Shown here piece by piece: positions 17,635 to 31,553 of a DNA stretch of 32,000 bases. Origin of the DNA: Candidatus Syntropharchaeum caldarium (lineage in GTDB: Archaea > Halobacteriota > Syntropharchaeia > Syntropharchaeales > Syntropharchaeaceae). The stretch's first letter is position 1; each line of letters opens with the position of its first letter. The notes beneath the pieces are model-generated. The model worked only from the letters and a program-made list of their open reading frames with translations. It ran no database searches and was not told where the DNA came from. Position numbers and translations under genes: made by a program. The stretch is taken from the NCBI GenBank assembly GCA_001766815.1, contig LYOS01000002.1:354577-386576 (forward strand), written 5' to 3'.

Positions 17635-18359
17635 AGATTCTTGTATTCTGCTGTGACTGGTGTTCCTACCCAGGTGCGGATCTTGCAGGCATCCTGAGGC
17701 TTGAATATCCACCAGAAGTCAGGATCATAAAGGTGATGTGCTCAGGCAGGGTGGATCCGATGCTCGTGCTCGATGCGTTGAGGCAGGGAATTGATGGCGT
17801 GATGGTGACAGGTTGCCATCCTGGTGAATGCCACTACGTCCACGGGAATATGGAGGCTGAGCGAAGGATTGAGCTTCTAAGATCAATATTTGAGAGATCT
17901 GGGATAAACCCCAGGCGTGTGAGGATTGAGTGGATCTCGGCATCAGAGGGTGAAAAGTTTGCAGAGGTTACACGTGCATTTAAACAGGAGATCGATGAGA
18001 TTGGACCCATCAATCAAGGTGAGATCGATGCAGCAGAAATCATCCATGATGTATTCTCATCAGAGCGGGCAAGACTTGTCCTTGGCGCTTCAAGGCGTGC
18101 GATCGAACTTGAGGGCGTTGATCCTCTCTGGTATAAAGGGGTTCTTGAGCGTACGGTGCGAGAGGAGGTTTTGCGTGAGCGGATACTCAGAGAACTGCGA
18201 AAGAGTGGTGCCCTGAGCGCACATGAACTTGCAGAACGGATCGGTGAACCAGCAAAGGAGATCTTCTGGAACTTGATCGCGATGAAACGAAGGCAGATCA
18301 TTCTTGATATGGGGATAGTAGATGATTCACTCAAGTTTGCCATACAGGAGGGTGTGTGA
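17631..18359 (+). CDS. mvhD: MvhD-like [2Fe-2S] protein with a C-terminal extension of about 110 aa (possible winged helix).
   Basis: The N-terminal part, FCCDWCSY...VMCSGRVD...VTGCHPGECHY, matches MvhD. Residues from about 128 to 242 are extra and include ILRELRKSGALSAHELAERIGEPAKEIFWNLIAMKRR. An ATGA overlap links it upstream. Confidence 0.85.
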   Translation: MKILVFCCDWCSYPGADLAGILRLEYPPEVRIIKVMCSGRVDPMLVLDALRQGIDGVMVTGCHPGECHYVHGNMEAERRIELLRSIFERSGINPRRVRIEWISASEGEKFAEVTRAFKQEIDEIGPINQGEIDAAEIIHDVFSSERARLVLGASRRAIELEGVDPLWYKGVLERTVREEVLRERILRELRKSGALSAHELAERIGEPAKEIFWNLIAMKRRQIILDMGIVDDSLKFAIQEGV

Positions 18360-20317
18360 TGAGAATCGGTGTCTATGTCTGCCACTGCGGGATCAATATC
18401 GGTGCAACCGTGGATGTTAAAAAGGTTGCTGAGTTCGCATCCCATCTCAAAGACGTTGTCATCTCCCGTGAGTACAGTTACATGTGCTCAGATCCAGGTC
18501 AGGAGCTTATAAAGAAGGATATACGGGAATTAGGACTTGACCGGGTCGTTGTTGCATCCTGTTCGCCCAGAATGCATGAGCCAACATTCAGGACCGCGGT
18601 CGCAGAGGCAGGCTTGAATCCTTATCTTTTTGAGATGGCAAACATCAGGGAGCACTGCTCATGGGTGCACGATGATCGTGAACGTGCAACCGAGAAGGCG
18701 ATGCACCTTGTTGCAGGCTCTGTCTATAAGTCAAAGCTTCTTGAACCACTCGAGCCAATGCAGGTTGGAATCACGAAGAAAGCGCTTGTCATGGGTGCAG
18801 GGATCGCTGGAATTCAGACAGCCCTTGATATCGCAGATTCAGGCTTCGAGGTCTATCTTGTTGAGCGATCGCCTTCCGTGGGTGGAAAGATGGCGCAGCT
18901 TGATAAGACGTTCCCAACGCTGGACTGCTCTGCGTGTATCCTGACACCAAAAATGGTCGATGCAGGGAGGCACCCAAATATCGAGCTCATGACATACTCA
19001 GAAGTAATTGATATCGATGGTTATGTCGGAAACTTCAAGGTCAAGATCAAGAAGAAGCCGAGATTCATCGATATCGAGAAGTGCACAGGCTGTGGTGAGT
19101 GTGCATCCCGCTGCCCGGTGGATGTTCCAAATGAGTTTGATGAAGGGATCGGAATCCGAAGTGCAATCTATATTCCATTCCCACAGGCGGTCCCCTTGAA
19201 GTACACGATCGATCGTGATAGCTGTATCCGCTGTGGGACATGCAAGAATGTCTGCAAACGTGATGCAATCGACTATGATCAGACCGAGGAGATCGTAGAA
19301 CTTGATGTAGGGGCAATCGTTGCTGCAACAGGCTATGACCTGATGGATGTGAGTTCCAGGGAGGAGTATGGCTACGGCAGGTTTGATAATGTCATAACAG
19401 GCCTGGAGTTTGAGCGGTTATGCAATGCATCAGGTCCAACCGGTGGAAAGATTCTCACAAAGGATGGTAGAGAACCCAAAGATGTTATCTTCATCCAGTG
19501 TGTCGGATCCAGGGAGATTGGGGGCAATGAATACTGTTCAAGGTTCTGCTGCATGTACACGGCAAAGCACGCACATCTTGTCGAGGACAGGATTGAAAGC
19601 GGCAAGGCGAAGGTTTTATTCACGGATGCACGGGCTTATGGCAAGGGCTTCGAAGAGTTCTATGTGCGGGTGATGGAGGAGGGTGTCGACTACTACAGGC
19701 GTGATCATGACAAACCAGTCAGTGTCACCGAAAGGGAGGATGGCAAGCTTATTGTTACAGCAACCGCGCTTGATGGCTCGCCAATTGAGCTTGAAGGGGA
19801 TATGGTCGTGCTCGCAACAGCAGCCACGGCATGTGAGGATGCGTTTGAGGTATCAAGGCTTCTAAATATCTCACGAACAGGCGATGGCTTCTTCATGGAG
19901 GCACATCCAAAATTAAGGCCGATTGATACACCATCTGATGGAATCTTCCTTGCAGGCTGTTCACAGGGACCAAAGGATATTCCTGACACGGTTGCTCAAG
20001 CTTCTGGTGCAGCTTCACAGGTTCTGAACCTGCTCGCCCAGGATTCAACGACCGGTTCACCGAGCGTATCAGAGGTAAACCAGGATATCTGCATCGGGTG
20101 TGCCACGTGCTTTGAGGTCTGTCCATACGGTGCGATCGAGATGGAGCGGCTTGAGGTTGGGTGGCGTGCAAAGACGAACGAGGTCGTATGTAAGGGCTGT
20201 GGTATCTGCGCCGGCGAATGTCCTGCACTTGCGATCAATGTGAAGCACTTTACGGATGAACAGATAATAAATAAGATTGAAGGTGTTCTTGCTGATTTGA
20301 ACGAGGTGGTAACATGA
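18359..20317 (+). CDS. hdrA: Heterodisulfide reductase subunit A (canonical architecture), a paralog of 12249..14210.
   Basis: It has the same motif set as the first hdrA, and the 5' ends are near-identical at the DNA level. The start overlaps the mvhD stop (TGATG). An alternative GTG start lies at 18356. Confidence 0.9.
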   Translation: MRIGVYVCHCGINIGATVDVKKVAEFASHLKDVVISREYSYMCSDPGQELIKKDIRELGLDRVVVASCSPRMHEPTFRTAVAEAGLNPYLFEMANIREHCSWVHDDRERATEKAMHLVAGSVYKSKLLEPLEPMQVGITKKALVMGAGIAGIQTALDIADSGFEVYLVERSPSVGGKMAQLDKTFPTLDCSACILTPKMVDAGRHPNIELMTYSEVIDIDGYVGNFKVKIKKKPRFIDIEKCTGCGECASRCPVDVPNEFDEGIGIRSAIYIPFPQAVPLKYTIDRDSCIRCGTCKNVCKRDAIDYDQTEEIVELDVGAIVAATGYDLMDVSSREEYGYGRFDNVITGLEFERLCNASGPTGGKILTKDGREPKDVIFIQCVGSREIGGNEYCSRFCCMYTAKHAHLVEDRIESGKAKVLFTDARAYGKGFEEFYVRVMEEGVDYYRRDHDKPVSVTEREDGKLIVTATALDGSPIELEGDMVVLATAATACEDAFEVSRLLNISRTGDGFFMEAHPKLRPIDTPSDGIFLAGCSQGPKDIPDTVAQASGAASQVLNLLAQDSTTGSPSVSEVNQDICIGCATCFEVCPYGAIEMERLEVGWRAKTNEVVCKGCGICAGECPALAINVKHFTDEQIINKIEGVLADLNEVVT

Positions 20318-20715
20318 GTTTTGAACCGTCAATTGTTGCCTTCTGCTGTAACTGGTGCTCTTATGCGGCAGCAGACCTGGCAGGAGTGAGTCGTATGAAA
20401 TATCCACCGAATGTGAGGATCATCCATGTTCCATGCTCTGGAAAGGTTGATCAGATCTATATCCTGAAAGCCCTTGAGATGGGGGCAGATGGGGTGCTTG
20501 TTACAGGGTGTATGGAAGGACAGTGCCATTATCTCACAGGAAACTACTACACCCGTGACCGTGTCGAGCGCCTGAAACGCGATCTTGAGAAGGTGGGGCT
20601 GGGCGGCAGGGTGGATATGTTCATGATGTCTGCTGCGATGGGGCGTGAATTTGCAGATACTGCAACGAGATTTACAGAGAAGATAAGAGAACTGGGACCG
20701 AACCCGTATAAGTAG
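20314..20715 (+). CDS. mvhD: MvhD, the standard-length 133-aa form.
   Basis: It shows FCCNWCSY...VPCSGKVD...VTGCMEGQCHY. An ATGA overlap links it to the hdrA stop. It ends in TAG. Confidence 0.9.
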   Translation: MSFEPSIVAFCCNWCSYAAADLAGVSRMKYPPNVRIIHVPCSGKVDQIYILKALEMGADGVLVTGCMEGQCHYLTGNYYTRDRVERLKRDLEKVGLGGRVDMFMMSAAMGREFADTATRFTEKIRELGPNPYK

Positions 20716-20733
20716 AGGGGGAGGTTCCGGGGG

Positions 20734-20745
20734 TTTTATTTTTTT
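20734..20745 (+). terminator. Oligo-T tract after the metV-mvhD operon.
   Basis: TTTTATTTTTTT lies 19 nt after the mvhD stop. Archaeal termination commonly uses oligo-T. Confidence 0.4.
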
Positions 20746-20748
20746 GGG

Positions 20749-21804
20749 ATGAGATCGGTGATAAGGGTTGAGAGAGTAGATATCGGAAGGTTGAAGGTGA
20801 TTTTTGGGTATAATCCAGATCACATCGCAAAGATAAAGACTGTCAGAGGCTATAGATGGCATCCTGATGGGAAATACTGGAGTGTGCCTTACTCTGAATT
20901 TGAAAGGCTCATATCAGTTTTTGGTTGTGAAAAGCTTGATATCGATCCTGTTGTATGGCTCAGCAAGCTTGAAAAGGAGCTTGCTGCAAGAAGATACAGT
21001 TCAAAGACGAAAAAAGCCTATCTTCATTACAATGAAGACTTTTTAAAGTTTTCTCGCAAAAACCCCACCGAAATATCCAATGATAATGTAAAAGATTATC
21101 TATTTCATCTGGTGGAGAAAAAAGAAGTCTCTACATCCACTTTGAATACAGCGATCAACGCATTGAAGTTTTACTATGGTGAGGTTTTGAAGCGAAGGTT
21201 TGCTTACGAGATAAAGAGGCCAAAGAAGGATAAGAAGCTTCCTGTTGTTCTGAGTCAGGAGGAGGTTTCAAGGATTATATCTTCCGTTACAAATCTCAAA
21301 CACAAACTGATTTTGATGCTTGTCTATTCTGCTGGTTTGAGGGTTAGCGAGGTTGTAACGTTGAAGCCGGAGGATATCGATGTGGAAAGGGAGCTTATCC
21401 ATGTTAAGGGAGCCAAGGGCAGAAAGGACAGATACACGATGCTTTCGGATGTGGCGATGGGGGCTCTGGAGCTGTATCTAAAGGCGTATCGACCCGAGAA
21501 ATGGCTCTTTCCCGGACAAAAATCCAGTTCCCACATCACAACGAGAACGGTGCAGAGGATATTTGAAGACGCCATCGAGAAGGCGGGGATCAAGAAGGAT
21601 GTTAGTGTTCATTCGTTAAGGCACAGCTTCGCAACACATTTACTGGAGGGCGGGACAGACCTGCGGTATATCCAGGAGCTGCTTGGGCATAAAAGTTCGA
21701 AGACGACAGAAATATATACGCATGTGAGTAAGAAAGACCTGAGTAACATAAAAAGTCCATTAGACTCTATCCTGACTCAAGAGGTAGTGGATGAAGATCG
21801 GTGA
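20749..21804 (+). CDS. Tyrosine recombinase/integrase, Xer-like, with an extra N-terminal domain of about 70 aa.
   Basis: The full catalytic set is present: R in AGLRVSE, K in VKGAKGRKDR, HSLRHSF, LGHKS and EIYTHV. The R-to-H spacing is 90 residues, which is Xer-like and not IntI-like. Confidence 0.9.
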   Translation: MRSVIRVERVDIGRLKVIFGYNPDHIAKIKTVRGYRWHPDGKYWSVPYSEFERLISVFGCEKLDIDPVVWLSKLEKELAARRYSSKTKKAYLHYNEDFLKFSRKNPTEISNDNVKDYLFHLVEKKEVSTSTLNTAINALKFYYGEVLKRRFAYEIKRPKKDKKLPVVLSQEEVSRIISSVTNLKHKLILMLVYSAGLRVSEVVTLKPEDIDVERELIHVKGAKGRKDRYTMLSDVAMGALELYLKAYRPEKWLFPGQKSSSHITTRTVQRIFEDAIEKAGIKKDVSVHSLRHSFATHLLEGGTDLRYIQELLGHKSSKTTEIYTHVSKKDLSNIKSPLDSILTQEVVDEDR

Positions 21805-21820
21805 AGTTCTGCCAGAGGGA

Positions 21821-21890
21821 GGTATATACGAAGTTTACTTCCGATATACCGCTAAATTTGAAGGATATACGACATTGATGTCGTATATAA
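21821..21890. other. Two adjacent core-type recombination-site candidates, 17 bp downstream of the integrase stop.
   Basis: Site 1 (21821-21850) reads GGTATATACGA-AGTTTACT-TCCGATATACC (11-8-11). Site 2 (21863-21890) reads GGATATACGAC-ATTGAT-GTCGTATATAA (11-6-11). All four half-sites fit GG(T/A)TATACGA. Confidence 0.6.
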
Positions 21891-21900
21891 ATGAGCAGAT

Positions 21901-21957
21901 GCGCAATTGAGGTTTTGCCCTTCGGGTTACTCACTTCGTTCGCAATTCTCAATCGCC
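21901..21957. repeat. Structured repeat A (hairpin carrying a degenerate copy of the shared core).
   Basis: GCGCAATTGAGG (21901-21912) pairs with TTCTCAATCGCC (21946-21957). The loop contains TTCGGGTTACTCAC. The right arm recurs inverted at 22080-22091 (GGCGATTGAGAA). Confidence 0.5.
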
Positions 21958-22036
21958 TTAATCCCTCACTTCATTTAACAGCAAAAAATAAGACAAGTGA
22001 TTAAAAAGAATGTGAAATTAAAACTTTACATAACGA

Positions 22037-22312
22037 AAAGGTTAAATGAAATTCTCTTATCAGAGAACTACGCTCGGGAGGCGATTGAGAACAAAACCCC
22101 AACTTCTCCGCTCCTCGCTTCGCTGCGGTGCTCGACCACGTTGCACTCTCACTCCGCTACGCTCCGTTCGGGGCGCATTACACCCGCTAACCGATTCGCT
22201 CCTTGCAGTCACTCATCCAAATTTTGCTTCGCAAAACTTCGGTTAGCTTTTTCGTTAGGCGTAATTGGGGGCAAAAAGATTCAAAGGGAACTCCCCGGTT
22301 AAGTTAATATAT
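22037..22312. repeat. ORF-less module consisting of structured repeat B, bounded by two GTTAA(A/G)T boundary motifs.
   Basis: It contains the boundaries AAAAGGTTAAATGAAAT (GTTAAAT at 22041-22047) and CCCCGGTTAAGTTAAT (GTTAAGT at 22298-22304). Other elements are the core TTCGGGGCGCATTACACCCG (22167-22186), a 9-bp inverted repeat GCTAACCGA (22187-22195) / TCGGTTAGC (22239-22247), the hairpin TTTTGC-TTC-GCAAAA, and GTTAGGC at 22254-22260. Confidence 0.55.
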
Positions 22313-22346
22313 GAGATTTAAAAACAAAAAATAGAAGGTGAAATAA

Positions 22347-22544
22347 ATGGCAAGAAAGGTGTGTGTATTGTGTGGGAAACAACACGGAATAATGCCATCT
22401 TCACCATTGGGGAAATGGCATCAATGCACAAACTGCGGACGGATATACTGCGATAGCTGTGGTGCAAAACTTAGAAGAGCAGGAACACTATCTCGTGAAC
22501 GCATATGCCCACATTGCGGAAATGAAACCACGTTGATTCCCTAA
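22347..22544 (+). CDS. Small double zinc-ribbon protein (65 aa).
   Basis: It has four CxxC pairs: CVLCG, CTNCG, CDSCG and CPHCG. The RBS AAGGTGA and a TATA-like TTAATATAT lie upstream. Confidence 0.7.
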   Translation: MARKVCVLCGKQHGIMPSSPLGKWHQCTNCGRIYCDSCGAKLRRAGTLSRERICPHCGNETTLIP

Positions 22545-22716
22545 TACGTCTTTGCCCCCCAACTCTTCGCAACCTTTTGGGTTGCTCGTCCTCGCTGTCG
22601 CTCGGATCACTTAACACGGTGTATGCGGTTCGAGTTATGCCCTCCCCCAAATGCCTCGCTACGCTCGGCACTTCGCATACACCAAAGCCGTTATATGACA
22701 TTCTGCCCCCCTCGCC
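22545..22716. repeat. Structured repeat C, a long imperfect palindrome.
   Basis: The core CTCGGATCACTTAACACGG (22601-22619) includes ACTTAAC. A perfect 10-bp stem, GGTGTATGCG (22618-22627) / CGCATACACC (22674-22683), is present. An inverted core copy, GCCGTTATATGAC, begins at 22688. Confidence 0.6.
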
Positions 22717-22762
22717 GTATCAGAAAATAAAAATATAGGAATAATTGTATGGAGGTTAAAAG

Positions 22763-23272
22763 ATGGCAACAATAAAAGATATACTCAAATCAAAGAAAAA
22801 GCCTAAAGAAATTGTTGAACTTTTGGCTGAAAAATTTAAAAGTGATGATAAAGCGATTGACGAACTTATACAATGCTTTAGAGATGGAACTACTGCTGAG
22901 AAAGGTAACTGCATGGAAGCGATAGAATATATTACCAAAGAAAGTCCAGAATTTGCCGAAGATTGCCTTGATTTCGTTATCGAGCATATCAATGATAAAA
23001 CTCCGAGGGTAAAATGGGAAGCTTGCAGAATAATTGGCAATGTTGCCCAAGAATTTCCAGATAAAGTTAAAAATGCTGTCCCAAAGCTCTTAGAAAACAC
23101 AAAAGATAAAGAAACAGTTGTAAGATAGAGTGCCGCTTTTGCTTTGACCGAGATTGCAAAAAGTAACCCAGCAATGCAAAAAGAACTTGTTCCTGAATTT
23201 AAGAAAGTACTAGAAAGAGAAGACAACAAGGGAGTGAAAAATATTTACATGAAATATCTTAAAGGTGCATGA
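22763..23272 (+). pseudogene. HEAT-repeat protein interrupted by a single in-frame TAG at 23126-23128.
   Basis: The reading frame continues through the TAG inside a HEAT motif (ETVVR-TAG-SAAFALTEIAK). It ends with an ATGA overlap onto the next gene's ATG (23269). Confidence 0.55.
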
Positions 23273-23757
23273 CTATGATAGATGATGTTAGGGATATAAT
23301 TGAAAGAGGAATTCTTTCTTTGCATGATGCTCTTCCTGAAATAAGGGAACTTGCATCCAGTGATGATTGGAGAAAACGGGAAGATGCAGCTACTGCACTG
23401 GTAGAGATCACCAAAAAGAGGAAAGATGAAGTTGTAAGTGAGATGATAATATGGGCAGAGGAAAAAGACCCCAATATTCGCAGAGTCTCAAGTGAAGGAT
23501 TGAGGGGTGTAGCGAGAAGAAATCCAGAGAAGATTTTACCAGTAATTGAAAAACTGAAAACTGACAATAGCCTTTATGTCAGAAAGTCCGTTGCTGCTCT
23601 TCTTAGGGCGATAAGCAAGAAAAATCCTGAATTTGTGGCGGATTTATGCAGAAAATGGGCAAAACTGAAAAATAAAAATACTAACTGGATAATAACACAG
23701 GGTATAAAGAAGTTATCAAAAGAGCAGCAGGAAGAATTAAAATCTTTATTAGATTAG
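23269..23757 (+). CDS. HEAT-like repeat protein (DNA alkylation repair enzyme-like).
   Basis: It shows repeated helical HEAT-type motifs (NIRRVSSEGLRGVA, LYVRKSVAALLRAI) and a C-terminal WAKLKNKNTNW. The family assignment is from pattern memory only. Confidence 0.6.
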   Translation: MTMIDDVRDIIERGILSLHDALPEIRELASSDDWRKREDAATALVEITKKRKDEVVSEMIIWAEEKDPNIRRVSSEGLRGVARRNPEKILPVIEKLKTDNSLYVRKSVAALLRAISKKNPEFVADLCRKWAKLKNKNTNWIITQGIKKLSKEQQEELKSLLD

Positions 23758-23766
23758 GTGAATAAA

Positions 23767-24654
23767 ATGGTTAATGAAATCAAAGTTAAATCAATACTAA
23801 ACAAACACAAAAAGAGGGATGATTGGTTTTTGGACGATTATTCAGTAAATCCTTATTCGGGTTGTTCTTTCAACTGTATTTACTGCTACATAAGAGGGAG
23901 TAAATATGGAGAAAATATGGCAAAGACTTTATCGGCAAAAATAAACGCCCCGGAACTTCTGGAAAAACAGCTTTCAAGAAGAGCAAAGAGAGGAGAATAT
24001 GGAATTATTGCTTTGTCATCTTCAACGGAGCCCTACATGCCAATTGAAGAAAAACTGAAGTTGACAAGAAAATTGCTTGAGATAATTCTGAAGTATAGAT
24101 TTCCTGTTGAAATTGCTACTAAATCAAAACTTGTTTTGAGGGATTTGGATTTATTAAAAGAGATCGCTAAGAATGCAATTTTGCCAGATGATTTGGAACC
24201 TAAACTGAAACATGGGGCAATTATTTCCTTTTCCATCTCAACTCTGGACGAGAAATTGGCAAAAATTCTTGAACCGGGAGCTCCTAAACCTATAGAGAGA
24301 TTGGATGCGATGAAAAGATGTAAAGAGAGGGGATTTTTTACTGGAATATGTTTTATTCCCGTTTTGCCATTTTTATCAGATTCTGAGGAACAAGTTGAGG
24401 AAACGATAAAAACTGTGAAGGAATATGGAGCAGATTTCATTTTTGTTGGTGGCTTAACTTTATTTGGTAAGGGGCCAGCGGATTGTAAGACTCTTTATTA
24501 TAAATTCTTGGAAAAATATCATCCTGAGCTTGTGCCAAAATATAAGAGTTTATACAGAATCTTTTTTGCACCATCAAAAGAATATCAAAAAGAGCTTGAA
24601 GAAAAATCAAGGAGGTTGTGTGAGAGATATGGAATTAAAAATGGGATTATCTAA
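23767..24654 (+). CDS. Radical SAM protein (SplB / DNA-repair-photolyase-like, COG1533-type).
   Basis: It has the CxxxCxxC motif NPYSGCSFNCIYCY near the N-terminus. The ATG at 23767 is preceded by AGGTG. An alternative GTG start lies at 23758. Confidence 0.75.
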   Translation: MVNEIKVKSILNKHKKRDDWFLDDYSVNPYSGCSFNCIYCYIRGSKYGENMAKTLSAKINAPELLEKQLSRRAKRGEYGIIALSSSTEPYMPIEEKLKLTRKLLEIILKYRFPVEIATKSKLVLRDLDLLKEIAKNAILPDDLEPKLKHGAIISFSISTLDEKLAKILEPGAPKPIERLDAMKRCKERGFFTGICFIPVLPFLSDSEEQVEETIKTVKEYGADFIFVGGLTLFGKGPADCKTLYYKFLEKYHPELVPKYKSLYRIFFAPSKEYQKELEEKSRRLCERYGIKNGII

Positions 24655-24803
24655 TGACGGTTTTGGGGCGGAACGCTTCGTCGCTTCGCTCCTCGCCCTC
24701 ACTTCGTTCGGGTCATATAACACGGGCTATACGGCTCACTCCGTTCGCCCAAATTTCGCCTTACGGCGAAACTTCACATATCCCCAAAACGTTAAGTGAA
24801 ATA
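24655..24803. repeat. Structured repeat D.
   Basis: It contains TTTTGGGG (24661-24668) paired with CCCCAAAA (24782-24789), and the core TTCGGGTCATATAACACGGG (24707-24726). It also has the hairpin TTCGCC-TTAC-GGCGAA and the right end CTTCACATATCCCCAAAACGTTAAGTGAAAT (GTTAAGT at 24791-24797). Confidence 0.6.
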
Positions 24804-24864
24804 CCCAAGCCCGCCTTGGGAAAGGATTTAAAAGTTGAAGCAAAACAATAAAACTGGGTACGAT

Positions 24865-25173
24865 ATGATAAAAGATATATCAGTTGATGAAATAAAAAGA
24901 ACTCTTAAAAAATATAAAAGTGAGCTAAAAGAGAAATTCGGAGTTAAAGAGATTGGTGTGTTTGGCTCCTATGTAAGAAGAGAACAGAAAAAAGGCAGTG
25001 ATATTGACATCCTCGTTGAATTTCATCCAGATACTGAGATGGACTTAATAAAATTTGTTGAACTCGAAGAATATCTATCTAAACTATTAGGAATAAAAGT
25101 TGATCTGGTAATGAAATCTGCTCTTAAACCACGGATAGGAAAGCGGATATTGAAAGAGGTAGTTTATATATGA
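24865..25173 (+). CDS. mntA: MNT-type nucleotidyltransferase (antitoxin partner of HepT).
   Basis: It has the motif GVFGSYVRREQKKGSDIDILV and is 102 aa. I prefer the ATG at 24865 over the TTG at 24835. Confidence 0.85.
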   Translation: MIKDISVDEIKRTLKKYKSELKEKFGVKEIGVFGSYVRREQKKGSDIDILVEFHPDTEMDLIKFVELEEYLSKLLGIKVDLVMKSALKPRIGKRILKEVVYI

Positions 25174-25537
25174 AAAGAGAAGCCGGCGACTTTATTGAAG
25201 ATATTATCAATGATCATATCAATGATCAATGCGATGAATAAAGCGTTAAAGTTTGTTGAGGGGATGTCTTATGAAGAGTTTGCCAAAGATGACAAAACCG
25301 TTTTTGCTGTTATTAGAGCTATTGAAATAATCGGAGAGGCTGTAAAAAAATATACCCGAAGATATAAGGAAAGAGTATCCCGAAATTCCCTGGAAGGGGA
25401 TGGCTGGGATGAGAGACAAAGTTATTCACGGGTATTTTGGAGTAGATATCAAAGTTGTGTGGGATACTGTTACAAAGAGAATTCCGGGACTTAAACCACT
25501 GGTTGAGAAGATGTTAGAAGAGCTGGAGGAGAAATAG
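25170..25537 (+). pseudogene. hepT: HepT (DUF86) RNase toxin gene, disrupted twice.
   Basis: An ATGA overlap links it to the MNT stop. An insertion of about 19 nt containing ATCAATGATCA twice (25206-25228) breaks the frame after MKREAGDFIEDII. A 7-A run (25344-25350) shifts the frame again just before IPEDIRKEYPEIPWKGMAGMRDKVIHGYF. The Rx4HxY motif is readable only in the shifted frame. Confidence 0.75.
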
Positions 25538-25540
25538 ATC

Positions 25541-25649
25541 TGACGTTAGGCAGACTCGGGCACTCTGCAGTGCTTCGCACTTGCCTTTCGGGTCATATAA
25601 CAAGCGGAATATCTGGCTTCAGATATCCACCAACCCTTAACTGAAATGC
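25541..25649. repeat. Structured repeat E.
   Basis: It contains GTTAGGC (25545-25551) and the core TTCGGGTCATATAACAAG (25587-25604). A 9-6-8 inverted site GGAATATCT-GGCTTC-AGATATCC lies at 25606-25628. The right end is CCACCAACCCTTAACTGAAATGC. Confidence 0.6.
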
Positions 25650-25716
25650 TGTGCCTGAGAAAGACAAAAAGGATGGGCAAGGAAACTTTATAGCTGGAAA
25701 GGGGTTTAACATAACT

Positions 25717-26412
25717 ATGATAAAGATCATTACCATTTGTTTACCACTACCTTATAAGTTAGGTACCGTAAATTGCTACCTCATAGAAACCGACATCGGC
25801 TATATTCTGATCGACACAGGGTGCTCAAATAAGCGCACCGAGCTTGAAAAAGAACTTGAAAGAGCGGGGTGTAAACCCGGCAATCTCAAACTCATCGTTT
25901 TAACCCATGGAGATTTTGACCACACAGGTAATGCAGCTCATCTCCGTGAAAAGTTCGGTGCAAGGATAGCGATGCATCATGATGATTCGGGAATGAGCGA
26001 ACGTGGAGACATGTTCTGGAACAGAAGAAAAGGCAATATTCTCCTTGGAATGATAGCTCGTATCCTGTTCAGATTTGGCAAAAAGGAAAGATTCAAACCA
26101 GATTTATATATTGATGAGGGATACGATCTCTCTGAATACGGACTCGATGCAAAAGTTCTTCATATTCCAGGCCACTCAAAAGGTTCAATAGGAATCCTGA
26201 CAGCCAATGGCGACCTGTTTTGCGGAGATTTGCTTGAAAATAAAGACAAACCAGTTCTCAGCTCTATTATGGACGACTTAACAACGGCAAATGCCAGTGT
26301 TGAGAAACTGAAAAGATTGGAAATAAAAACTGTTTATCTAGGGCATGGAAAGCCCTTCCCGATGGAACTGTTTATGAAACATCACCGAAAAAGGGATAAA
26401 GAGGAAAATTAA
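25717..26412 (+). CDS. MBL-fold metallo-hydrolase.
   Basis: It has VLTHGDFDHTGN and HIPGHSKGS motifs. The ATG at 25717 gives a typical N-terminus, MIKIITICLPLPY. Confidence 0.8.
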   Translation: MIKIITICLPLPYKLGTVNCYLIETDIGYILIDTGCSNKRTELEKELERAGCKPGNLKLIVLTHGDFDHTGNAAHLREKFGARIAMHHDDSGMSERGDMFWNRRKGNILLGMIARILFRFGKKERFKPDLYIDEGYDLSEYGLDAKVLHIPGHSKGSIGILTANGDLFCGDLLENKDKPVLSSIMDDLTTANASVEKLKRLEIKTVYLGHGKPFPMELFMKHHRKRDKEEN

Positions 26413-27162
26413 ATGTCTCAATTAAAACAAAATCCGCTTATTGGTGTCGAAACTGCAAATTCCAGCTGGAATTGGCTCTACAGAGTCGCAGGAGTGGCTG
26501 CCCTGATCTCATTAGTGATTATCCCGATCCAGGTCATCATCTTCATCGTCTCGCCGCCACCAACCACTGCAATCGGTTGGTTCACCCTGTTTCAAAACAA
26601 TAAGCTCCTGGGGCTCCTGGCTTTTGAACTCTTGATTATTGTCAGCAATGCTCTTGCGATTCCGATATATCTCGCATTCTACGCCGCCCTCAGACGAGTC
26701 AGTGAATCTTTCATGGCCATCGCCACGGTCATCGGCTTGGTGGGGATTGTGGCTTCCTTCGTAGCGAGACCCGCCTTCGAAATGCTTTACCTCAGCGACC
26801 AATACGCGGCTGCCACAACAGATTCGCAATCCATGTTCCTGGCAGCAGGGGAGGTTATGATTGCCATGTCCAAGGGCACTGCTTCTCATTTGAGTTACAT
26901 CTTCGCGGCCTTAGCCCCTCTGATAATCTCGGTTGTCATGCTGCGGAGCAATATCTTCAGCAAGGCAACTGCTTATATTGGAATTCTGGCAAATGTGATT
27001 GCATTGGGCTTTTACGTGCCAGAGATAGGCATCATTTTTGGAATCATTTCTGTCTGCCCGTTTTTGATGATATGGGAGATCCTGATTGCCCGAAGGTTCT
27101 TCCAGTTAGGGCGCGGTATCTCTAAAGAGGAGGCAAATCGGATTGGAGGTATGTCTCGATGA
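26413..27162 (+). CDS. Integral membrane protein (DUF4386-like; low-confidence family call).
   Basis: It is 249 aa with about 6-7 hydrophobic segments. Its start abuts the MBL stop. Confidence 0.6.
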   Translation: MSQLKQNPLIGVETANSSWNWLYRVAGVAALISLVIIPIQVIIFIVSPPPTTAIGWFTLFQNNKLLGLLAFELLIIVSNALAIPIYLAFYAALRRVSESFMAIATVIGLVGIVASFVARPAFEMLYLSDQYAAATTDSQSMFLAAGEVMIAMSKGTASHLSYIFAALAPLIISVVMLRSNIFSKATAYIGILANVIALGFYVPEIGIIFGIISVCPFLMIWEILIARRFFQLGRGISKEEANRIGGMSR

Positions 27163-27641
27163 AAGCATTGGTAATTTACGATTCGGTTTTTGGCAATACA
27201 GAGCAAATAGCCCAAGTGATTGGTAACGCGATGGGTTCCCAAGCAGAGGTCAACATACTTCGTGTGGGTAATGTGAAGCCAGAACATTTGACAGGTTTGG
27301 ACGTGCTCATCGTCGGCTCTCCTACCCGGGGATTCAAACCTACAAAAGCGATTACAAATTTTCTGAAAAGAATTCCAAAAAATGGTCTAAAAGGTGTCAA
27401 GGTAGCTGCATTTGATACCAGGTTTACAATGAGTGCTATAGAAGAATCACGCGTGTTACCATTTTTTGTAAGATTATTTGGCTATGCCGCCAAGCCGATC
27501 TCAGACAGACTCAAGAAAAAAGGGGGAGAATTGATCATCCCTCCTGAAGGGTTCTTTGTAGAAGGGGTAGAAGGTCCACTGAAAGAAGGCGAACTTGAAC
27601 GAGCTGCGGATTGGGCAAAGCAAATCATAGCAACACAATAA
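27159..27641 (+). CDS. Flavodoxin.
   Basis: It has the N-terminal FMN-phosphate loop MKALVIYDSVFGNTEQIA and VGSPTRGF. An ATGA overlap links it to the upstream gene. Confidence 0.8.
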   Translation: MKALVIYDSVFGNTEQIAQVIGNAMGSQAEVNILRVGNVKPEHLTGLDVLIVGSPTRGFKPTKAITNFLKRIPKNGLKGVKVAAFDTRFTMSAIEESRVLPFFVRLFGYAAKPISDRLKKKGGELIIPPEGFFVEGVEGPLKEGELERAADWAKQIIATQ

Positions 27642-27657
27642 ATCGCCCAACAACCGC

Positions 27658-28029
27658 ATGGAGCTGACACTCGAAGATGTTAAAGAAGTCGACCTTGAAA
27701 AGTTAGCGGATTGTTATGCAATGTTGATAGGGTTGCCAAATCATTGGGGTGGGCCTTCTCGAACTATTAGAAAGTTTATTGATAAGCTTGACAAACTTGA
27801 CTTGAAGGCGAAGTGGTTCGCTGTTTTCGATACCTATCTTGGGGGAGATTTCGAGAAGGCTGTGAAGAAAATGGAGAAGAGAATAGGCGAAAAGATTCCT
27901 AGCCTGAAGCTAATAACTTCTGGCTTATCCATAAAGGTTGAGGGAATGAAGAGTCCTGTCATAGAAGAAGAGTATCTCAGGTGCAAGGATTTCGGAAAGA
28001 AAATAGCGAATCAACTTCTGAGGTGTTAA
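27658..28029 (+). CDS. Flavodoxin-like protein lacking the N-terminal FMN-phosphate loop; a truncated paralog.
   Basis: It retains the motif LIGLPNHWGGPSRTIRKFIDKL and the C-terminal flavodoxin pattern, but has no SxxGNT loop. Confidence 0.55.
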   Translation: MELTLEDVKEVDLEKLADCYAMLIGLPNHWGGPSRTIRKFIDKLDKLDLKAKWFAVFDTYLGGDFEKAVKKMEKRIGEKIPSLKLITSGLSIKVEGMKSPVIEEEYLRCKDFGKKIANQLLRC

Positions 28030-28030
28030 A

Positions 28031-28435
28031 ATGGGAATAAAGATATATCTATATGCTCTTGGGATTTGGCTCATATTTGTTGCTGCGGGTATCTTGAACG
28101 GAGTATTTAGGGAGTCATTTATCACACCTAAGATAGGAGAACATACAGGTCACATTATCAGCACAGTCATTCTTATCTGTGTTATCTTAGCGGTGACGTA
28201 TCTATTTATCAGCAATTTGAAAATCAACTACACTAAGACAGACCTGCTTTTGATTGGTATGTTTTGGACTATATTAACCATTTTGTTTGAATTTGGCTTC
28301 GGTCACTATGTTATAGGTCATTCATGGAGTAAGTTATTTGCAGATTACAACATCCTTAAAGGGAGAGTATGGAGTCTTGTATTATTAACTACGTTCATCG
28401 CACCATTGTTAATTGGCTACATTCTGAAGAGGTAG
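28031..28435 (+). CDS. Small membrane protein (134 aa, about 4 TM segments).
   Basis: The ORF is hydrophobic and starts 1 nt after the previous stop. Confidence 0.55.
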   Translation: MGIKIYLYALGIWLIFVAAGILNGVFRESFITPKIGEHTGHIISTVILICVILAVTYLFISNLKINYTKTDLLLIGMFWTILTILFEFGFGHYVIGHSWSKLFADYNILKGRVWSLVLLTTFIAPLLIGYILKR

Positions 28436-28589
28436 GTTTGGAGAATATGAAAGTTAAAAGAGGCGGGTGTTCAATATCGCCTAACAGAACATAAAAGGTA
28501 TACGCTGTGTCTGTGGGCTAACCTAATTTCTGCCTCACAAAAACTGCTTAATATCATGGTCTTTCCAGAGATAAATCATAAAGAAAGTT

Positions 28590-29948
28590 TCACCCCCTCC
28601 TGAACGCTTCCATCGCTTCTCTAAATCTTACAACAGACTCAGGATCTGATGCAAAGTGGAGATGCATGTACGAAGCAAGTGTTCCGCCCTGGATGATCCC
28701 ATCATGTTTGCCATCGATCCCATTTCCCCGTAGCATCCTGTATGCAAACCGCAAATCTTCCGGCGGATCATGAACCGCTGTATAGTGAAACTCATGACCC
28801 AGTACACGCTTTCCTTTTGCAAATAATACTGAGTCGTTTATCGTCTCTGCAACCGTGAACTTGACGTGCCTTCCATTCATACCCGACTCAATCGGCAGGA
28901 AACCAACCCCTCTCGATCCAGCGAGTTTTTTTCCGAGATAAATTAAACCACCACACTCTGCAATTGTCGGGATTCCATCATCAAGCACTCTCTGCAGGTC
29001 TTTAAGCATACTCTCATTTCTTGAAAGCTCTTTTGCGAATACCTCAGGGTAGCCCCCTCCAATATAAAGCCCATCAAGTTGGGGAAGTCTTTTGTCACTC
29101 AGTGGGCTGAAAAATACAGGTTCACAGCCGTTTATGCGCAGAAGGTCGAGCGAATCCTCGTAATAGAAGTTGAAGGCATCGTCGTATGCAACCCCCACCC
29201 TGAAGATACCATCACCAATGCCCTCTTGCCTTAAAAAAACCACAGGGGCTTCCGTCTCTATTTCTGGAGCACTCTCTGCGATCTCAAGGATTCTGTCAAG
29301 ATCTACGTACGTCTCGATAACAGAGCGAATCCCCTCAAGCTCAATTCCTGACTCAACCATCGGAATAAGTCCAAGATGTCTGTCACAGATCTCCATCTCT
29401 TCGGATCTGGGGATTGCACCAATCACACTGACCCCTGCGAGATCCTCGACCGCGGTAACCACCTTCTTTCTGTGCTCCTCGCCGGCGATATTGTTCAGGA
29501 TTACACCTTTTATCATAACCTCACGATCAAAGGATTTAAACCCGTGAACGATCGCTGCGGCGCTCTTTGTAATACTCTTTGCATTCACGATCAGGATTAC
29601 GGGGGCTTTCAGGATCTTTGCAATATGCGCTGTGCTCCCCTCTTCCTGATGTATCGAGATCCCCTCAAATAACCCTCTTACACCTTCGATGATCGATAAA
29701 TCCTTGCTGGTGCTGTTTCGAAAGAAGATCTCTTTTATTGTCGCTGGTGTCATCAGCACACTGTCAATATTTCGAGATGAATGCCCTGTTGCCTTGCGGT
29801 GGTATCCGGGATCGATATAATCAGGTCCGACCTTATAACCCTGGACATCAAAACCACGCCCTGTCAGGGCTGACATCACGCCTGTTGTGATTGTGGTCTT
29901 CCCGACGCCGCTACCCGATCCTGCAAATATGATTCTTGGAAATTTCAT
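28590..29948 (-). CDS. cbiA: Cobyrinic acid / Ni-sirohydrochlorin a,c-diamide synthase family (CbiA/CfbB).
   Basis: It has the P-loop AGSGSGVGKTTIT, KVGPDYIDPGYH, and a C-terminal glutamine amidotransferase domain (ECGGLIYL, HEFHY). Sequence alone cannot separate CbiA from the F430 enzyme CfbB. Confidence 0.8.
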   Translation of the reverse strand: MKFPRIIFAGSGSGVGKTTITTGVMSALTGRGFDVQGYKVGPDYIDPGYHRKATGHSSRNIDSVLMTPATIKEIFFRNSTSKDLSIIEGVRGLFEGISIHQEEGSTAHIAKILKAPVILIVNAKSITKSAAAIVHGFKSFDREVMIKGVILNNIAGEEHRKKVVTAVEDLAGVSVIGAIPRSEEMEICDRHLGLIPMVESGIELEGIRSVIETYVDLDRILEIAESAPEIETEAPVVFLRQEGIGDGIFRVGVAYDDAFNFYYEDSLDLLRINGCEPVFFSPLSDKRLPQLDGLYIGGGYPEVFAKELSRNESMLKDLQRVLDDGIPTIAECGGLIYLGKKLAGSRGVGFLPIESGMNGRHVKFTVAETINDSVLFAKGKRVLGHEFHYTAVHDPPEDLRFAYRMLRGNGIDGKHDGIIQGGTLASYMHLHFASDPESVVRFREAMEAFRRG

Positions 29949-29955
29949 CTGCTTT

Positions 29956-30303
29956 TCAGCCTATATAGGTCAGATCCTCCTTCTTTTCTGCCCCTCCGTC
30001 CTCTGCATCTTTCTGTGCCACGCCAGGCACATTTATGGTACCGAACTTCCGCTCATAGTTCGCAACATTCTCTTTGAACGCCTGTAAGAAGACCTTTGCA
30101 TGATTCGGGCTGAGTTTTATCCTTGTGAGTACCTCGAAAGTTTCCTTCTCAGGTATAAAGACTCCGAAGTCGATCGTAAAGTCATGGAGGCTGTTTGAGA
30201 TCCTTGCAACATTTGAATAGATCCCTTCAAGCTTATCTTCCGATATATTGAACTTAATCGAACTGATATCTGATTTACCCTTTAGTAGTTTATTTCCCAT
30301 CAA
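29956..30303 (-). CDS. DUF3467-like small protein.
   Basis: It shows the pattern DFTIDFG...RIKLSPNHAKVFLQAFKENVANYERKFG. A 4-nt overlap links it to gatD. Confidence 0.6.
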   Translation of the reverse strand: MMGNKLLKGKSDISSIKFNISEDKLEGIYSNVARISNSLHDFTIDFGVFIPEKETFEVLTRIKLSPNHAKVFLQAFKENVANYERKFGTINVPGVAQKDAEDGGAEKKEDLTYIG

Positions 30304-31553
30304 AACCCACCTATAACATCTGTTGAATCTGTGATTTCACCAACTATATTGGTTTTCATCATATCTTTAATCTTATCTGGATCTTTTTCTCGATTCAGAA
30401 GCCACATAAGCTTTATAAGTGCAACTTCAGGAAGCATATCCTCCCCTTCAATTACACCAAGCTTGAGAAGGTCGCGGCCTGTATCATAGACCCTGTCACA
30501 TACCCTGCCATAGAGACACTGTGAGGTCATAACCACGATAACACCAGCATCAATGAGGTGTCCTATCGCATCAAACCAGGTGCTCGATGTATGACCAAGC
30601 CCTGTCCCTTCGATCACAACGCCTCTGTAACCTCGTTCCCTGTAAAAGTCGAGGATTTCTGGGTCTGCACCAGGATAGAACTTGACAAGTGCAACTCGCT
30701 CTTCTAAACCATCATAGAGTGCTAAAGCCACCTCTCCCCGTTTTGTATGTGATTCTTCTATCTCAATTTTGAGGTCTGGATAACTCACCTTTCCTATCGG
30801 ATTTACATTGATCGATCTGAACGCATCCCTGCGTGATGTGTGCATCTTTCGAACCTTGACGCCCCTGTGGATCAAACAAAGATCATCAGAGGTTGAGCCG
30901 TGCATCACACAGACAACCTCTGCAATATCTGAGGTTGCAACCTTCGCGGCGGCAAGCGCATTCATCACATTATCGCTCGATGGTCTGTCTGCACTGCGCT
31001 GTGAGCCCACGAGTACGATCGGAACAGGAGTTCGCACCATGAATGCAAGCGCAGCGGCTGTGAATCCAAGCGTATCTGTTCCATGTGTTATGATGATTCC
31101 TTCTGCACCATCTTTGATCTTCTCATAAACCCGTCTTGCAAGCTCAATCCAGTAAGAAACCTGCATATTCTCGCTCAGGATGTTGTAAACAACCTCTGCA
31201 TCGAAATTTGCGATTTTTTCAAGCTCTGGAATCGCCTGAAGGATCTCACTTGCAGTAAACTGGCTTGTAACCGCACCGGTTCTGTAGTCCACTCTGCATG
31301 CGATCGTACCGCCTGTCGAGAGGATAACAAGATTTGGAAGCGATGAGTCGCGATGATACTCATATTGCTGCGCGTTCTCAGCCTTTTCAACCTCTCGCGA
31401 CTCAAGTATCTTCACCCGGTCCTTCTTAAGACCGATATTATACCCATTTGAAAGCTTGATCACAAGATGATCAGTGGCACCTGGCAGGAGTGTACCTTCA
31501 TAGATTTTTCCTCCACGTTCCAGGCGCACCCATGATCCCTCTTCAATCTTCAT
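30300..31553 (-). CDS. gatD: Glutamyl-tRNA(Gln) amidotransferase subunit D.
   Basis: It has asparaginase-type motifs (ILSTGGTIA, ITHGTDT) after an N-terminal GatD-specific domain. It is 417 aa. Confidence 0.9.
   Translation of the reverse strand: MKIEEGSWVRLERGGKIYEGTLLPGATDHLVIKLSNGYNIGLKKDRVKILESREVEKAENAQQYEYHRDSSLPNLVILSTGGTIACRVDYRTGAVTSQFTASEILQAIPELEKIANFDAEVVYNILSENMQVSYWIELARRVYEKIKDGAEGIIITHGTDTLGFTAAALAFMVRTPVPIVLVGSQRSADRPSSDNVMNALAAAKVATSDIAEVVCVMHGSTSDDLCLIHRGVKVRKMHTSRRDAFRSINVNPIGKVSYPDLKIEIEESHTKRGEVALALYDGLEERVALVKFYPGADPEILDFYRERGYRGVVIEGTGLGHTSSTWFDAIGHLIDAGVIVVMTSQCLYGRVCDRVYDTGRDLLKLGVIEGEDMLPEVALIKLMWLLNREKDPDKIKDMMKTNIVGEITDSTDVIGGF

Follow-up and report, generated by a model that had tools for sequence, protein, structure and literature searches.

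The low-GC accessory block at 20749-28589 between mvhD and cfbB of the archaeon Candidatus Syntrophoarchaeum is a partly decayed, integron-like gene-cassette array headed by a Xer-type tyrosine recombinase; the recombinase and the attC-like sites, which are inferred to act in folded form, differ from those of classical integrons, and relatives of the system occur in many archaea and bacteria. No description of it was found in the searchable literature. All coordinates refer to the + strand of the window, the whole stretch of 32,000 nucleotides that was analysed (contig LYOS01000002.1, positions 354,577 to 386,576).

The accessory block and its boundaries

The initial annotation had described an island of about 7.8 kb with an intact tyrosine recombinase at its head, AT-rich cargo and three decayed genes, and this observation was borne out. 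Searches with Pfam and NCBIfam recovered the genes as described: the recombinase (20749-21804), a Zn ribbon (22347-22544), two HEAT proteins (22763-23272 and 23269-23757), radical SAM (23758-24654), MNT (24835-25173), HepT (25170-25537), MBL (25651-26412), DUF4386 (26413-27162), a flavodoxin (27159-27641), a flavodoxin fragment (27658-28029) and a membrane protein (28031-28435). The block is flanked by hdrA/mvhD on the left and, on the right, by a cbiA-like gene that is better named CfbB (544 bits against the NF033195 cut-off of 560), followed by GatD and AroC. Among 2.1-kb windows of the flanks the minimum GC was 43.1% and the mean 47.9%, whereas cassettes 2 and 3 (see below) have 36.5% and 37.3% GC; the tetranucleotide distance to the flanks was 0.047-0.049, against a flank maximum of 0.021. 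All three decayed genes were confirmed: HEAT1 has an in-frame TAG at 23126 (intact homologues are 171-173 aa), HepT is spread over three frames with the RX4HXY motif out of frame, and the second flavodoxin lacks about 30 N-terminal residues.

As the initial annotation had noted, neither a tRNA nor a direct repeat of the flanks was found, and the three site-like fragments that it had placed at the right edge are present at 28453, 28479-28485 and 28497-28505. Its suspicion about these fragments was correct, because GCCTAAC at 28479-28485 turned out to be the inverse core of a half recombination site. The true right boundary, however, is not 28560 but the G|TT at 28587-28589, which abuts the cfbB stop codon (TCA, 28590-28592). 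Both edges differ in close relatives: L001, which is 98.4% identical, diverges at 28586 and has a PQQ-repeat gene next to cfbB, lacking there the distal 1.27 kb of the block, and L081, a 98%-identical strain, diverges at 20725 and keeps an internally deleted recombinase at the same locus; no simple empty site was seen. Both junctions are reproduced in independent Logan assemblies of run SRR3669912, the left one in contig L169 (100% identical over 20683-22792) and the right one in contig L257.

The recombinase and its attI-like site

The recombinase (20749-21804, 351 aa, intact) comprises an N-terminal HARP-like domain (aa 1-67, nt 20749-20950), a SAM-like core-binding domain and a catalytic domain; it matches PF00589 and PF13495, and its catalytic residues are invariant in alignment A1. 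It scored 253 bits with the XerA equivalog NF040815 (cut-off 220) but only 237 bits with the IntI model TIGR02249 (cut-off 265), the latter match being split in two stretches. The IntI-specific insert (I2) is absent: in the alignment with VchIntIA (2A3V), 27 aa of the query face 69 aa of IntI. For the N-terminal domain, HARP and XPB damage-recognition-domain folds were the top hits (Pfam; Foldseek with AF2 models), but the structural matches are weak (E = 0.05-0.4) and some array-linked recombinases lack the HARP-like domain, so its role is uncertain. Homologues share 60-87% identity across Archaea and Bacteria, and the internal deletion in L081 shows that the gene is dispensable.

Directly 3' of the gene lies an attI-like site (21821-21895), consisting of palindrome 1 (21821-21850), a spacer GCTAAATTTGAA, palindrome 2 (21865-21888) and the sequence AAATGAG, with the expected crossover after 21895; the crossover TT found in homologues is here replaced by CA. 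The same architecture lies 3' of the recombinase in the related loci L141, L094, L100, L107, L108, L082 (from the cultured Thermodesulforhabdus norvegica) and L086, always ending ..AG|TTA... An ORF-less stretch follows (21896-22056) that seems to hold decayed site remnants, namely an L''-like arm GCGCAATTGAGG (21901-21912) with a partner near 21945-21956 and a minimal R''/R' pair (22022-22056), but these were read directly from the sequence and the evidence is weak (10.3 bits, E = 3.2 with the covariance model).

attC-like sites and cassettes in the window

The initial annotation missed that the GC-rich intergenic spacers are structured, attC-like sites of about 100 nt that divide the block into co-oriented cassettes, and that an attI-like site follows the recombinase. 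A covariance model of these sites (R1) found three strong sites and one truncated site in the window, all on the + strand, all between gene modules and none outside the block. Site 0 (22169-22269; 46.7 bits, E = 1.7e-8) has a G|TT crossover at 22254|22255 (GTTAGGC), and its L stem folds. Site A (22603-22705; 76.4 bits, E = 2.9e-15) has the R'' box TCACTTAAC (22607-22615), the crossover G at 22690 and the R' box GTTATATGAC, and site B (24709-24806; 75.6 bits, E = 4.5e-15) has its crossover G at 24791 and the R' box GTTAAGTGA. A degenerate region (25538-25651) holds a GTTAGGC core (25545), a hairpin-1-like GTGCTTCGCAC and then the truncated site C (25589-25651; 15 bits, E = 0.27), in which the internal 46 model positions are missing, the internal junction is lost and the crossover G is mutated to C at 25636; site C shares a 16-nt 5' end with site B. 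At 28476-28500 a half site, ATCGCCTAAC-A-GAACATAAAAGG, was read against the consensus of alignment A2; it consists of R'' plus L'' only and is not significant by the model, but its R'' complements the GTTAGGCG after site 0.

Cassette 1 (22255-22690), bounded by the G|TT of site 0 and of site A, carries the zinc-ribbon protein, for which Pfam gave only weak zinc-ribbon hits. Cassette 2 (22691-24791) carries the HEAT1 pseudogene, HEAT2/AlkD-like and a radical SAM 'DNA repair photolyase'-like protein, and its start, TTATATGAC, is 10/10 complementary to R'' GTCATATAAC of its own 3' site B. The same cassette with its site occurs at 93.7% nt identity in Methanoperedenaceae GB50 (L251), inside a three-site array, and at 81.7% in Caldisericia (L253), next to an attI-like palindrome, and radical SAM homologues reach 80-97% aa identity across at least 10 archaeal and bacterial phyla. 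Cassette 3 (24792-25636) carries an MNT antitoxin-type nucleotidyltransferase (PF01909) and a HepT toxin pseudogene (PF01934) with at least 2 frameshifts. Block 4 (25637-28587; 42.7% GC) comprises five tightly packed genes (MBL hydrolase, DUF4386 membrane protein, flavodoxin, flavodoxin fragment and membrane protein), but its status as a cassette is inferred because no intact 3' site is present.

Sites and cassettes in related loci

The sites carry integron-type cores (..TAAC / G|TTA..), and their stems covary: in a 20-site alignment 84.5% of cells pair, against 23-43% when partners are slid, 18 of 28 pairs show compensatory changes, and 0 of 500 shuffles reached the observed value. Among related loci (563 kb), 42 of 42 model hits lie on the recombinase strand (p = 2e-13), and 36 lie downstream and 3 upstream of the recombinase, a density of 2.37 against 0.12 per 10 kb (p = 3e-12). 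However, only 17 of 33 metagenome loci with at least 1.5 kb downstream of the recombinase have a site detectable with R1. In one population, L084/L085 differ from the otherwise 99.9% identical L086/L087 by a single 574-nt cassette inserted exactly at ..AACTTG|TT.. of attI, and this cassette starts with TTGTATGC, which is complementary to its own R'' GCATACAAC. More generally, R' of a site is 8.6/10 complementary to R'' of the next site, against 6.0/10 within the same site, cassette starts complement the inverse core of their own 3' site, and in L150 and L132 every joint, attI included, was fully complementary by direct reading. In the window, two of the three joints between the recognised sites break this neighbour rule and no R' can be read at attI. 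The cargo of the family is typical of integron cassettes (MazF toxin-antitoxin pair, restriction-modification, GNAT, Cass2 (PF14526), bleomycin/glyoxalase and MNT/HepT).

Interpretation and alternative explanations

We consider it very likely that the block is a chromosomal integron-like gene-capture platform. In this view, the attI-like site, with two imperfect palindromes of TATATACGA-type arms around a CCAAAT-like spacer ending in ..AG|TT.., would receive circular cassettes by strand exchange at G|TT; each cassette carries an imperfect palindrome of about 95-145 nt with outer R''/R' boxes, a long covarying L stem with a 1-nt by 4-5-nt asymmetric bulge, and a conserved three-way junction with a CGCCCAAAT loop. 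Cassettes would be lost or reshuffled by recombination between sites, so that cargo accretes in one orientation. The anatomy, the structural covariation, the strand and position bias of the sites, a natural single-cassette insertion exactly at G|TT, the neighbour rule and the same cassette with its site in unrelated genomes are established by our sequence comparisons, whereas it is only inferred that the adjacent recombinase is the catalyst, that the site acts as folded single-stranded DNA, and that the HARP-like domain reads the branched or bulged DNA in place of the IntI I2 helix. The copy in the window is decaying and sedentary, its attI crossover being mutated, site C and the last site degenerate and three cargo genes pseudogenes.

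The interpretation in the initial annotation, an integrated or accreted mobile region, is partly supported: the block is accessory, compositionally foreign, recombinase-headed, placed between core operons and variable between close relatives, and the phrase 'accreted mobile region' is apt, but the entry of a classical genomic island, prophage remnant or integrative element as one unit through its tyrosine integrase is not supported and appears unlikely. The block shows no tRNA target and no attL/attR duplication, GC differs between modules (36.5%, 37.3%, 42.7%, 46.6%), structured sites sit at every module boundary, the homologous recombinase heads cassette arrays elsewhere with single-cassette polymorphism, and L081 keeps a deleted recombinase at the same locus. 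A chimera of assembly or binning, which might be suspected because contigs of relatives break at both edges, is very improbable given the independent contigs across both junctions and the diverged remnant in L081.

A canonical integron of the IntI/attC type, as reported in archaeal MAGs including ANME-1 (Ghaly 2022; PMC9668308), would be compatible with the RYYYAAC / GTTRRRY cores and the G|TT crossover, with an attI immediately downstream of the integrase as described there for archaeal integrons, and with VchIntIA as the best PDB sequence hit, yet we regard it as unlikely because of the missing insert and the low TIGR02249 score. Furthermore, a proxy model (R2) built from 9 validated archaeal attCs detected attC_aadA1 in a class 1 control (42.5 bits) but none of the window sites and none of the sites that R1 finds in 8 related arrays, and R1 did not detect the canonical attCs, although it cannot be excluded that IntegronFinder itself detects some of these sites or that a canonical IntI acts on them in trans. 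None of four site motifs (three CCCAAAT-type loop motifs and GCCTAACAG) occurred in the part of the supplement of that study that could be searched as text. The gene might also be the host's XerA chromosome-dimer resolvase, with unrelated REP/MITE-like or RNA elements as spacers and the accessory genes merely as neighbours, since it passes the XerA model and aligns contiguously to XerA structures. This is most doubtful in view of its deletion in L081, its 60-87% identity across domains, the sites that are strand- and position-locked to the recombinase, the cassette insertion at G|TT and the neighbour rule; a search of Rfam gave no match.

Comparison with known recombination systems

Integrons, both bacterial and archaeal (PMC9668308), likewise combine a tyrosine recombinase next to an attI with co-oriented cassettes that each end in an imperfect palindrome with RYYYAAC / GTTRRRY cores, a crossover at G|TT, cassette starts that belong to their own site, covarying stems that imply a folded site, cargo of the same kind (toxin-antitoxin pairs, restriction-modification, GNAT, Cass2) and cassettes shared across domains. 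Here, however, the recombinase has no I2 insert, carries 1-3 N-terminal HARP-like domains and is co-oriented with the cassettes, with attI 3' of the gene, and the sites have a 1 x 4-5 nt bulge instead of the symmetric unpaired central spacer, 10-12-bp L stems and the conserved three-way junction with a CGCCCAAAT loop; the proxy model of canonical attC and the model of these sites do not detect each other's sites. The best fold matches for the N-terminal 65 aa, the HARP domain of SMARCAL1 (4O66) and the damage-recognition domain of archaeal XPB (5TNU, 2FWR, 6P4F), both recognise forked or distorted DNA, but the matches are weak (TM about 0.5), no helicase is attached and the function here is inferred only.

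XerA/dif, which acts in archaeal chromosome dimer resolution (PDB 4A8E, 5HXY), shares the core fold and the length of the catalytic region, and the attI arms are short, AT-rich inverted repeats like dif, but the recombinase described here has an extra N-terminal domain, is dispensable, has been transferred horizontally across domains and is followed by cassette arrays. IMEX elements such as CTXphi, integrated by XerCD from a folded single-stranded attP hairpin (PMC3442271), provide a precedent that an I2-less Xer recombinase can exchange one strand pair between folded ssDNA and a double-stranded site, yet they borrow the host XerCD and dif, carry whole phage genomes and have no dedicated recombinase, no attI and no tandem cassette array. 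The pdif modules of Acinetobacter plasmids are mentioned in PMC9771954. They are small accessory modules, including toxin-antitoxin pairs, that are bounded by Xer-type sites and found in varied contexts, but pdif sites are 28-bp double-stranded XerC/D sites in alternating orientation, with no folded site of about 100 nt, no attI and no dedicated recombinase.

Composition of the locus and its variation in relatives

The gene content of 20749-28435 is as described in the initial annotation, whose core observation of a foreign, recombinase-headed accessory block is confirmed. The left flank holds a metF-like gene followed, within 11206-20715, by four tandem hdrA-like genes (12237-14210, 14105-15928, 15925-17634 and 18356-20317) and two mvhD/FlpD-like genes (17631-18359 and 20314-20715), with two of the hdrA copies sharing about 75% nt identity in places, whereas the right flank holds cfbB (called cbiA in the initial annotation), gatD and aroC. 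GC content falls to 36.5-37.3% in 22691-25636, against a minimum of 43.1% in any 2.1-kb flank window, and the tetranucleotide distance is more than twice the flank maximum. Three genes are decayed. HEAT1 has an in-frame TAG (23126-23128, between ETVVR and SAAFAL), which is its only defect (unless it is read through, for example as pyrrolysine); HepT has at least two frameshifts and is spread over three frames, so that its RX4HXY motif is not in frame, although its partner MNT is intact; and the second flavodoxin is N-terminally truncated. A near-tandem duplication, ATCAATGATCAT/ATCAATGATCAA (25205-25230), lies at the first frame change of the HepT pseudogene. Independent Logan contigs reproduce both junctions, and the right edge, placed at 28560 in the initial annotation, is better placed at G↓TT (28587-28589; the arrow marks the crossover here and below).

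Comparison with relatives, which had been named beforehand as a check, showed that the locus is variable. A MAG contig of Ca. Syntrophoarchaeum sp. (L001), 98.4% identical over 28586-32000, loses homology 4 nt beyond the cfbB stop and continues into an AT-rich stretch of 330 nt and a PQQ/beta-propeller repeat gene instead of the array (L001 11364-12632); the switch falls at the same GTT, and the contig ends there. A second relative (L081), 98.1% identical over the hdr operon, diverges 10 nt after the mvhD stop and keeps only the first ~35 nt and the last ~70 nt of a roughly 80%-identical recombinase gene, plus the start of the site that follows it. The recombinase is therefore dispensable, but no clean empty site was seen. 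A scan of genome contigs with CfbB returned L001 as the only close relative, the rest being distant CbiA homologues, which precluded a wider synteny comparison. The reading of the block as an integrated or accreted mobile region was supported only in part: 'accreted' is apt, but integration as a unit is not supported, because a tRNA scan found no tRNA gene and a search for flank repeats found no repeat joining the two edges, as would be expected of the attL/attR of an integrative island or prophage.

The intergenic spacers as attC-like sites

The GC-rich spacers between the gene modules share motifs, and the key to their identity came from a 64%-identical recombinase homologue (P0077). Four metagenome contigs of that homologue are 99.9% identical, except that two of them carry a 574-nt single-gene insert about 95 nt 3' of the recombinase stop (e.g., L084 relative to L086). 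The empty site reads ..GGATATAACTTGTT↓ATGATAGG, and the filled site reads ..AACTTG↓TTGTATGC..[ORF]..GCATACAAC-AGCGACTATGCGG....CGCATAGTCGCGAACG↓TTATGATAGG. The crossover lies in G↓TT, and the first bases of the cassette (TTGTATGC) complement the inverse core (GCATACAAC) of the palindrome at its own 3' end, which is the logic of attI x attC integron recombination. The window spacers are homologous to that palindrome. In L085 (11878-15158), compared with L084, a 3.3-kb insert carrying a DDE transposase, a transglutaminase-like gene and two small ORFs lies inside an otherwise identical array.

Profile searches over 88 fetched loci gave about 25 sites, 20 of which were aligned. The consensus is ..CGYYTAAC-A-[L'' 10-12 nt]-GGCT..[hairpin 1]..CTTCGCCCAAAT-[hairpin 2]-ACTTC-[L']-xAAAC-GTTARRCGxAAT, and thus contains the R'' (RYYYAAC) and R' (GTTRRRY) cores of the imperfect palindromes of integrons. 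For a structure with R, L, hairpin-1-closing and hairpin-2 helices, 84.5% of cells pair, against 23-43% when partners are slid; 18 of 28 pairs show compensatory changes (8 of 10 in L, 6 of 7 in hairpin 2), and no shuffle in 500 reaches the observed value. Single-sequence DNA folds of intact sites reproduce the R and L stems, with a 1-nt bulge against a 5-nt bulge. A covariance model of these sites (R1), run over the whole window with filters off, gave 46.7 bits at 22169-22269, 76.4 bits at 22603-22705, 75.6 bits at 24709-24806 and 15 bits at 25589-25651, the last being a truncated copy with its junction deleted and the crossover G changed to C; outside the island there was only a 14-bit match of chance level. 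By direct reading, 28476-28500 is a 5' half site (ATCGCCTAAC-A-GAACATAAAAGG), whereas 25486-25551, considered as a further site overlapping the hepT 3' end, was rejected because its arms do not pair. A search of Rfam over the island gave no family, and a bacterial promoter/terminator scan, not suited to archaea, was at chance level. Mechanical ORFs of 65-101 aa (21997-22302 and 24654-24851), with translations rich in LRS..SLRSG, run straight through the structured sites, and ORFs of the same kind appear in the related loci L144, L093 and L141; they are likely to be annotated as hypothetical proteins in genomes that carry these arrays.

Association of the sites with the recombinase

The recombinase (20749-21804) is encoded next to the array, which begins at 21821, and the same arrangement holds in at least 17 related loci. 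Over 563 kb of loci searched on both strands, all 42 R1 hits at E ≤ 0.1 are on the recombinase strand (p = 2e-13), and in the 80 metagenome loci 36 hits lie downstream and 3 upstream, although more upstream sequence was searched (p = 3e-12). Arrays of 3-4 sites follow the gene in the related loci L141, L144, L093, L150 and L132. In locus L096, however, two sites (3836-3939 and 7814-7915) lie upstream of the recombinase (8001-9146) and one (11834-11928) downstream, so that the recombinase gene sits inside an array, with an MNT/HepT pair further upstream (about 670-1195). Of the 80 metagenome contigs (L089-L168), 47 end less than 1.5 kb after the recombinase gene and 43 begin less than 1.5 kb before it, which is expected if assemblies break at a conserved multi-copy recombinase gene next to variable cassettes.

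An attI-like architecture lies 3' of the gene in about a dozen loci from different hosts, with two imperfect palindromes of TATATACGA-type arms, a CCAAAxTGG spacer, then AAC(G/A)AG↓TTAxxCGAAAT. The window has every part of this architecture at 21821-21895, but reads ..AAATGAG↓CAGATGCG where the others read AG↓TTA, the crossover TT being replaced by CA (21896-21897). A CCAAAT-type motif is conserved both between the two attI palindromes and in the unpaired junction of the cassette sites (CGCCCAAAT; alignment columns 50-58), and may be a common binding site. The first bases of a cassette derive from its own site, since R' after site i is 8.6/10 complementary to R'' of site i+1, against 6.0/10 to its own R'', and by direct reading every joint of L150 and L132, attI included, is fully complementary. 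In the window this rule holds 10/10 for cassette 2 and fails at two other joints; the R' after site B (24709-24806) complements the R'' of site A (22603-22705) instead, which points tentatively to past reshuffling.

Cassette mobility and cargo

The three-gene cassette 2 (HEAT-HEAT-radical SAM) recurs with its 3' site in the complete chromosome of Methanoperedenaceae archaeon GB50 (L251), with 93.7% nt identity over window 22749-24802; this copy sits inside a three-site array, and no recombinase lies within 8 kb. Upstream of it (L251 6303-6490), a small Zn-ribbon ORF is followed by GTTATATGACATTCCGCCCC, the same junction sequence as after site A in the window, and a MazE-like gene is then inserted before the cassette, so that the array is partly syntenic between two archaeal orders. 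The cassette also recurs in Caldisericia bacteria (L253) at 81.7% nt identity, where the site is decayed and an attI-like palindrome (GAATATACGAAATACTTCTTCTATAC; 6880-6960) lies upstream without a recombinase gene, which suggests a platform that lost its recombinase. The radical SAM protein is 100% identical to one named Ca. S. caldarius and has homologues of 80-97% identity in Thermoplasmatales, Asgard, Bathyarchaeia, Dehalococcoidia, Acidobacteria, Patescibacteria and others, whereas the island proteins other than those of cassette 2 showed no close copies in the fetched loci. Exact-sequence look-ups returned no match for the recombinase, radical SAM, MBL, Zn ribbon and the protein P0271, probably because gene callers chose other start codons. 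Cargo in related arrays is typical of integron cassettes: a MazF toxin-antitoxin pair, methylase plus HNH, GNAT, Cass2, glyoxalase/bleomycin and pentapeptide.

The recombinase and its predicted N-terminal domain

The recombinase has 351 aa with all catalytic residues conserved, and a fold search ranks VchIntIA and XerA together. The conserved N-terminal ~65 residues (..YNP..K.K...G.RW....K.W..P) gave a weak Pfam HARP hit and, as a separate model (pLDDT 70.6), best fold matches to the SMARCAL1 HARP domain and the damage-recognition domain of archaeal XPB (E = 0.05-0.4), matches that are weak but concordant. Distant array-linked relatives carry one to three such domains, or none, and the HARP-like domain also occurs as 5-8 tandem copies in very long proteins of unknown type (P0139, 1431 aa; P0159, 2151 aa; P0235, 1187 aa). 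A phmmer search with the N-domain alone gave 712 representatives, mostly fragments or tandem repeats in long proteins, which is not a usable census of the family because members collapse at 50% clustering. A scan of viral contigs hit mostly generic Xer-like phage integrases that align only from residue ~70 and lack the N-domain, and these are not of this family. Homologues of the recombinase share 60-87% identity across Syntropharchaeales, ANME-1, Methanotrichaceae, Thermoplasmatota and the bacterium Thermodesulforhabdus norvegica.

Interpretation and implications

The island is an integron-like cassette platform of a variant class, sedentary and decaying in this genome. That it works like an integron is strongly supported by the sites, the insertion at G↓TT and the recurrence of a cassette with its site, whereas catalysis by the adjacent recombinase, the single-stranded nature of the substrate and the role of the HARP-like domain are inferred. 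It is about as likely as not that the window exposes a domain-spanning and so far undescribed class of integrons, in which cassettes would be captured by an I2-less, Xer-like recombinase carrying HARP-like structure-specific DNA-binding domain(s), with attC sites that fold into a conserved three-way junction. Such a class would move cassettes such as HEAT-HEAT-radical SAM between Archaea and Bacteria, may account for part of the 'integrase-less' attC clusters, and would be either the Xer-like ancestor state of integrons or an independent invention of the same strategy.

Integron integrases are thought to have gained single-stranded attC recombination by acquiring the I2 helix (PMC7790495, PMC4792948), and a natural cassette system with integron cores and the G↓TT crossover but no I2 helix bears directly on that view. 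It makes the origin of integrons from Xer recombinases experimentally testable, and one host, T. norvegica, exists as a sequenced isolate. The system also shows a concrete route for gene flow between Archaea and Bacteria, the same cassette with its site being found in Syntrophoarchaeum, Methanoperedenaceae and Caldisericia, and suggests that standard integron screens may undercount integrons in anaerobic archaea and uncultured bacteria. For the alkane-oxidising Syntrophoarchaeum itself, the locus is a hot spot of accessory-gene turnover beside core energy-metabolism and F430 genes.

Comparison with Xer recombinases and canonical integrons

By sequence the protein passes the NCBIfam XerA equivalog (NF040815, 253.3 bits against a cut-off of 220), and its alignment to XerA is contiguous. 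It does not behave as the conserved, vertically inherited core gene expected of chromosome dimer resolution, however, because it is internally deleted in L081 and shares 68% identity with the homologue of the bacterium Thermodesulforhabdus and 60-87% across phyla. The IntI-specific additional domain (the I2 helix around patch III) is absent: against VchIntIA (2A3V) the alignment splits, query residues 234-260 (27 aa) facing IntI residues 171-239 (69 aa), and the IntI model TIGR02249 scores 237 bits, below its cut-off of 265. Membership in the IntI-type integron family thus fails on the defining insert and, by proxy, on the attC geometry.

Ghaly et al. (PMC9668308) report archaeal integrons, with six IntIs that carry the additional domain and canonical attCs. 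RNAalifold on nine full-length canonical attCs recovered only the R stem, because MAFFT misaligned the variable loops, and a proxy model (R2) was therefore built from their nine experimentally validated attCs with the loops trimmed. R2 detects attC_aadA1 in a class 1 integron control (42.5 bits), but none of the window sites and none of the sites in eight related arrays, and R1 in turn does not detect the canonical attCs. Literature searches found no description of such a system, although an overlap with already counted elements, including the two 'complete' archaeal integrons of Ghaly et al., remains possible; Smyshlyaev et al. only note that the insert is 'not fully conserved' in their integron-like subgroup (PMC8138268). 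The geometry differs in that canonical sites have a symmetric 5 x 6-nt unpaired central spacer, whereas these sites have a 1 x 4-5-nt bulge, longer L stems and a conserved junction.
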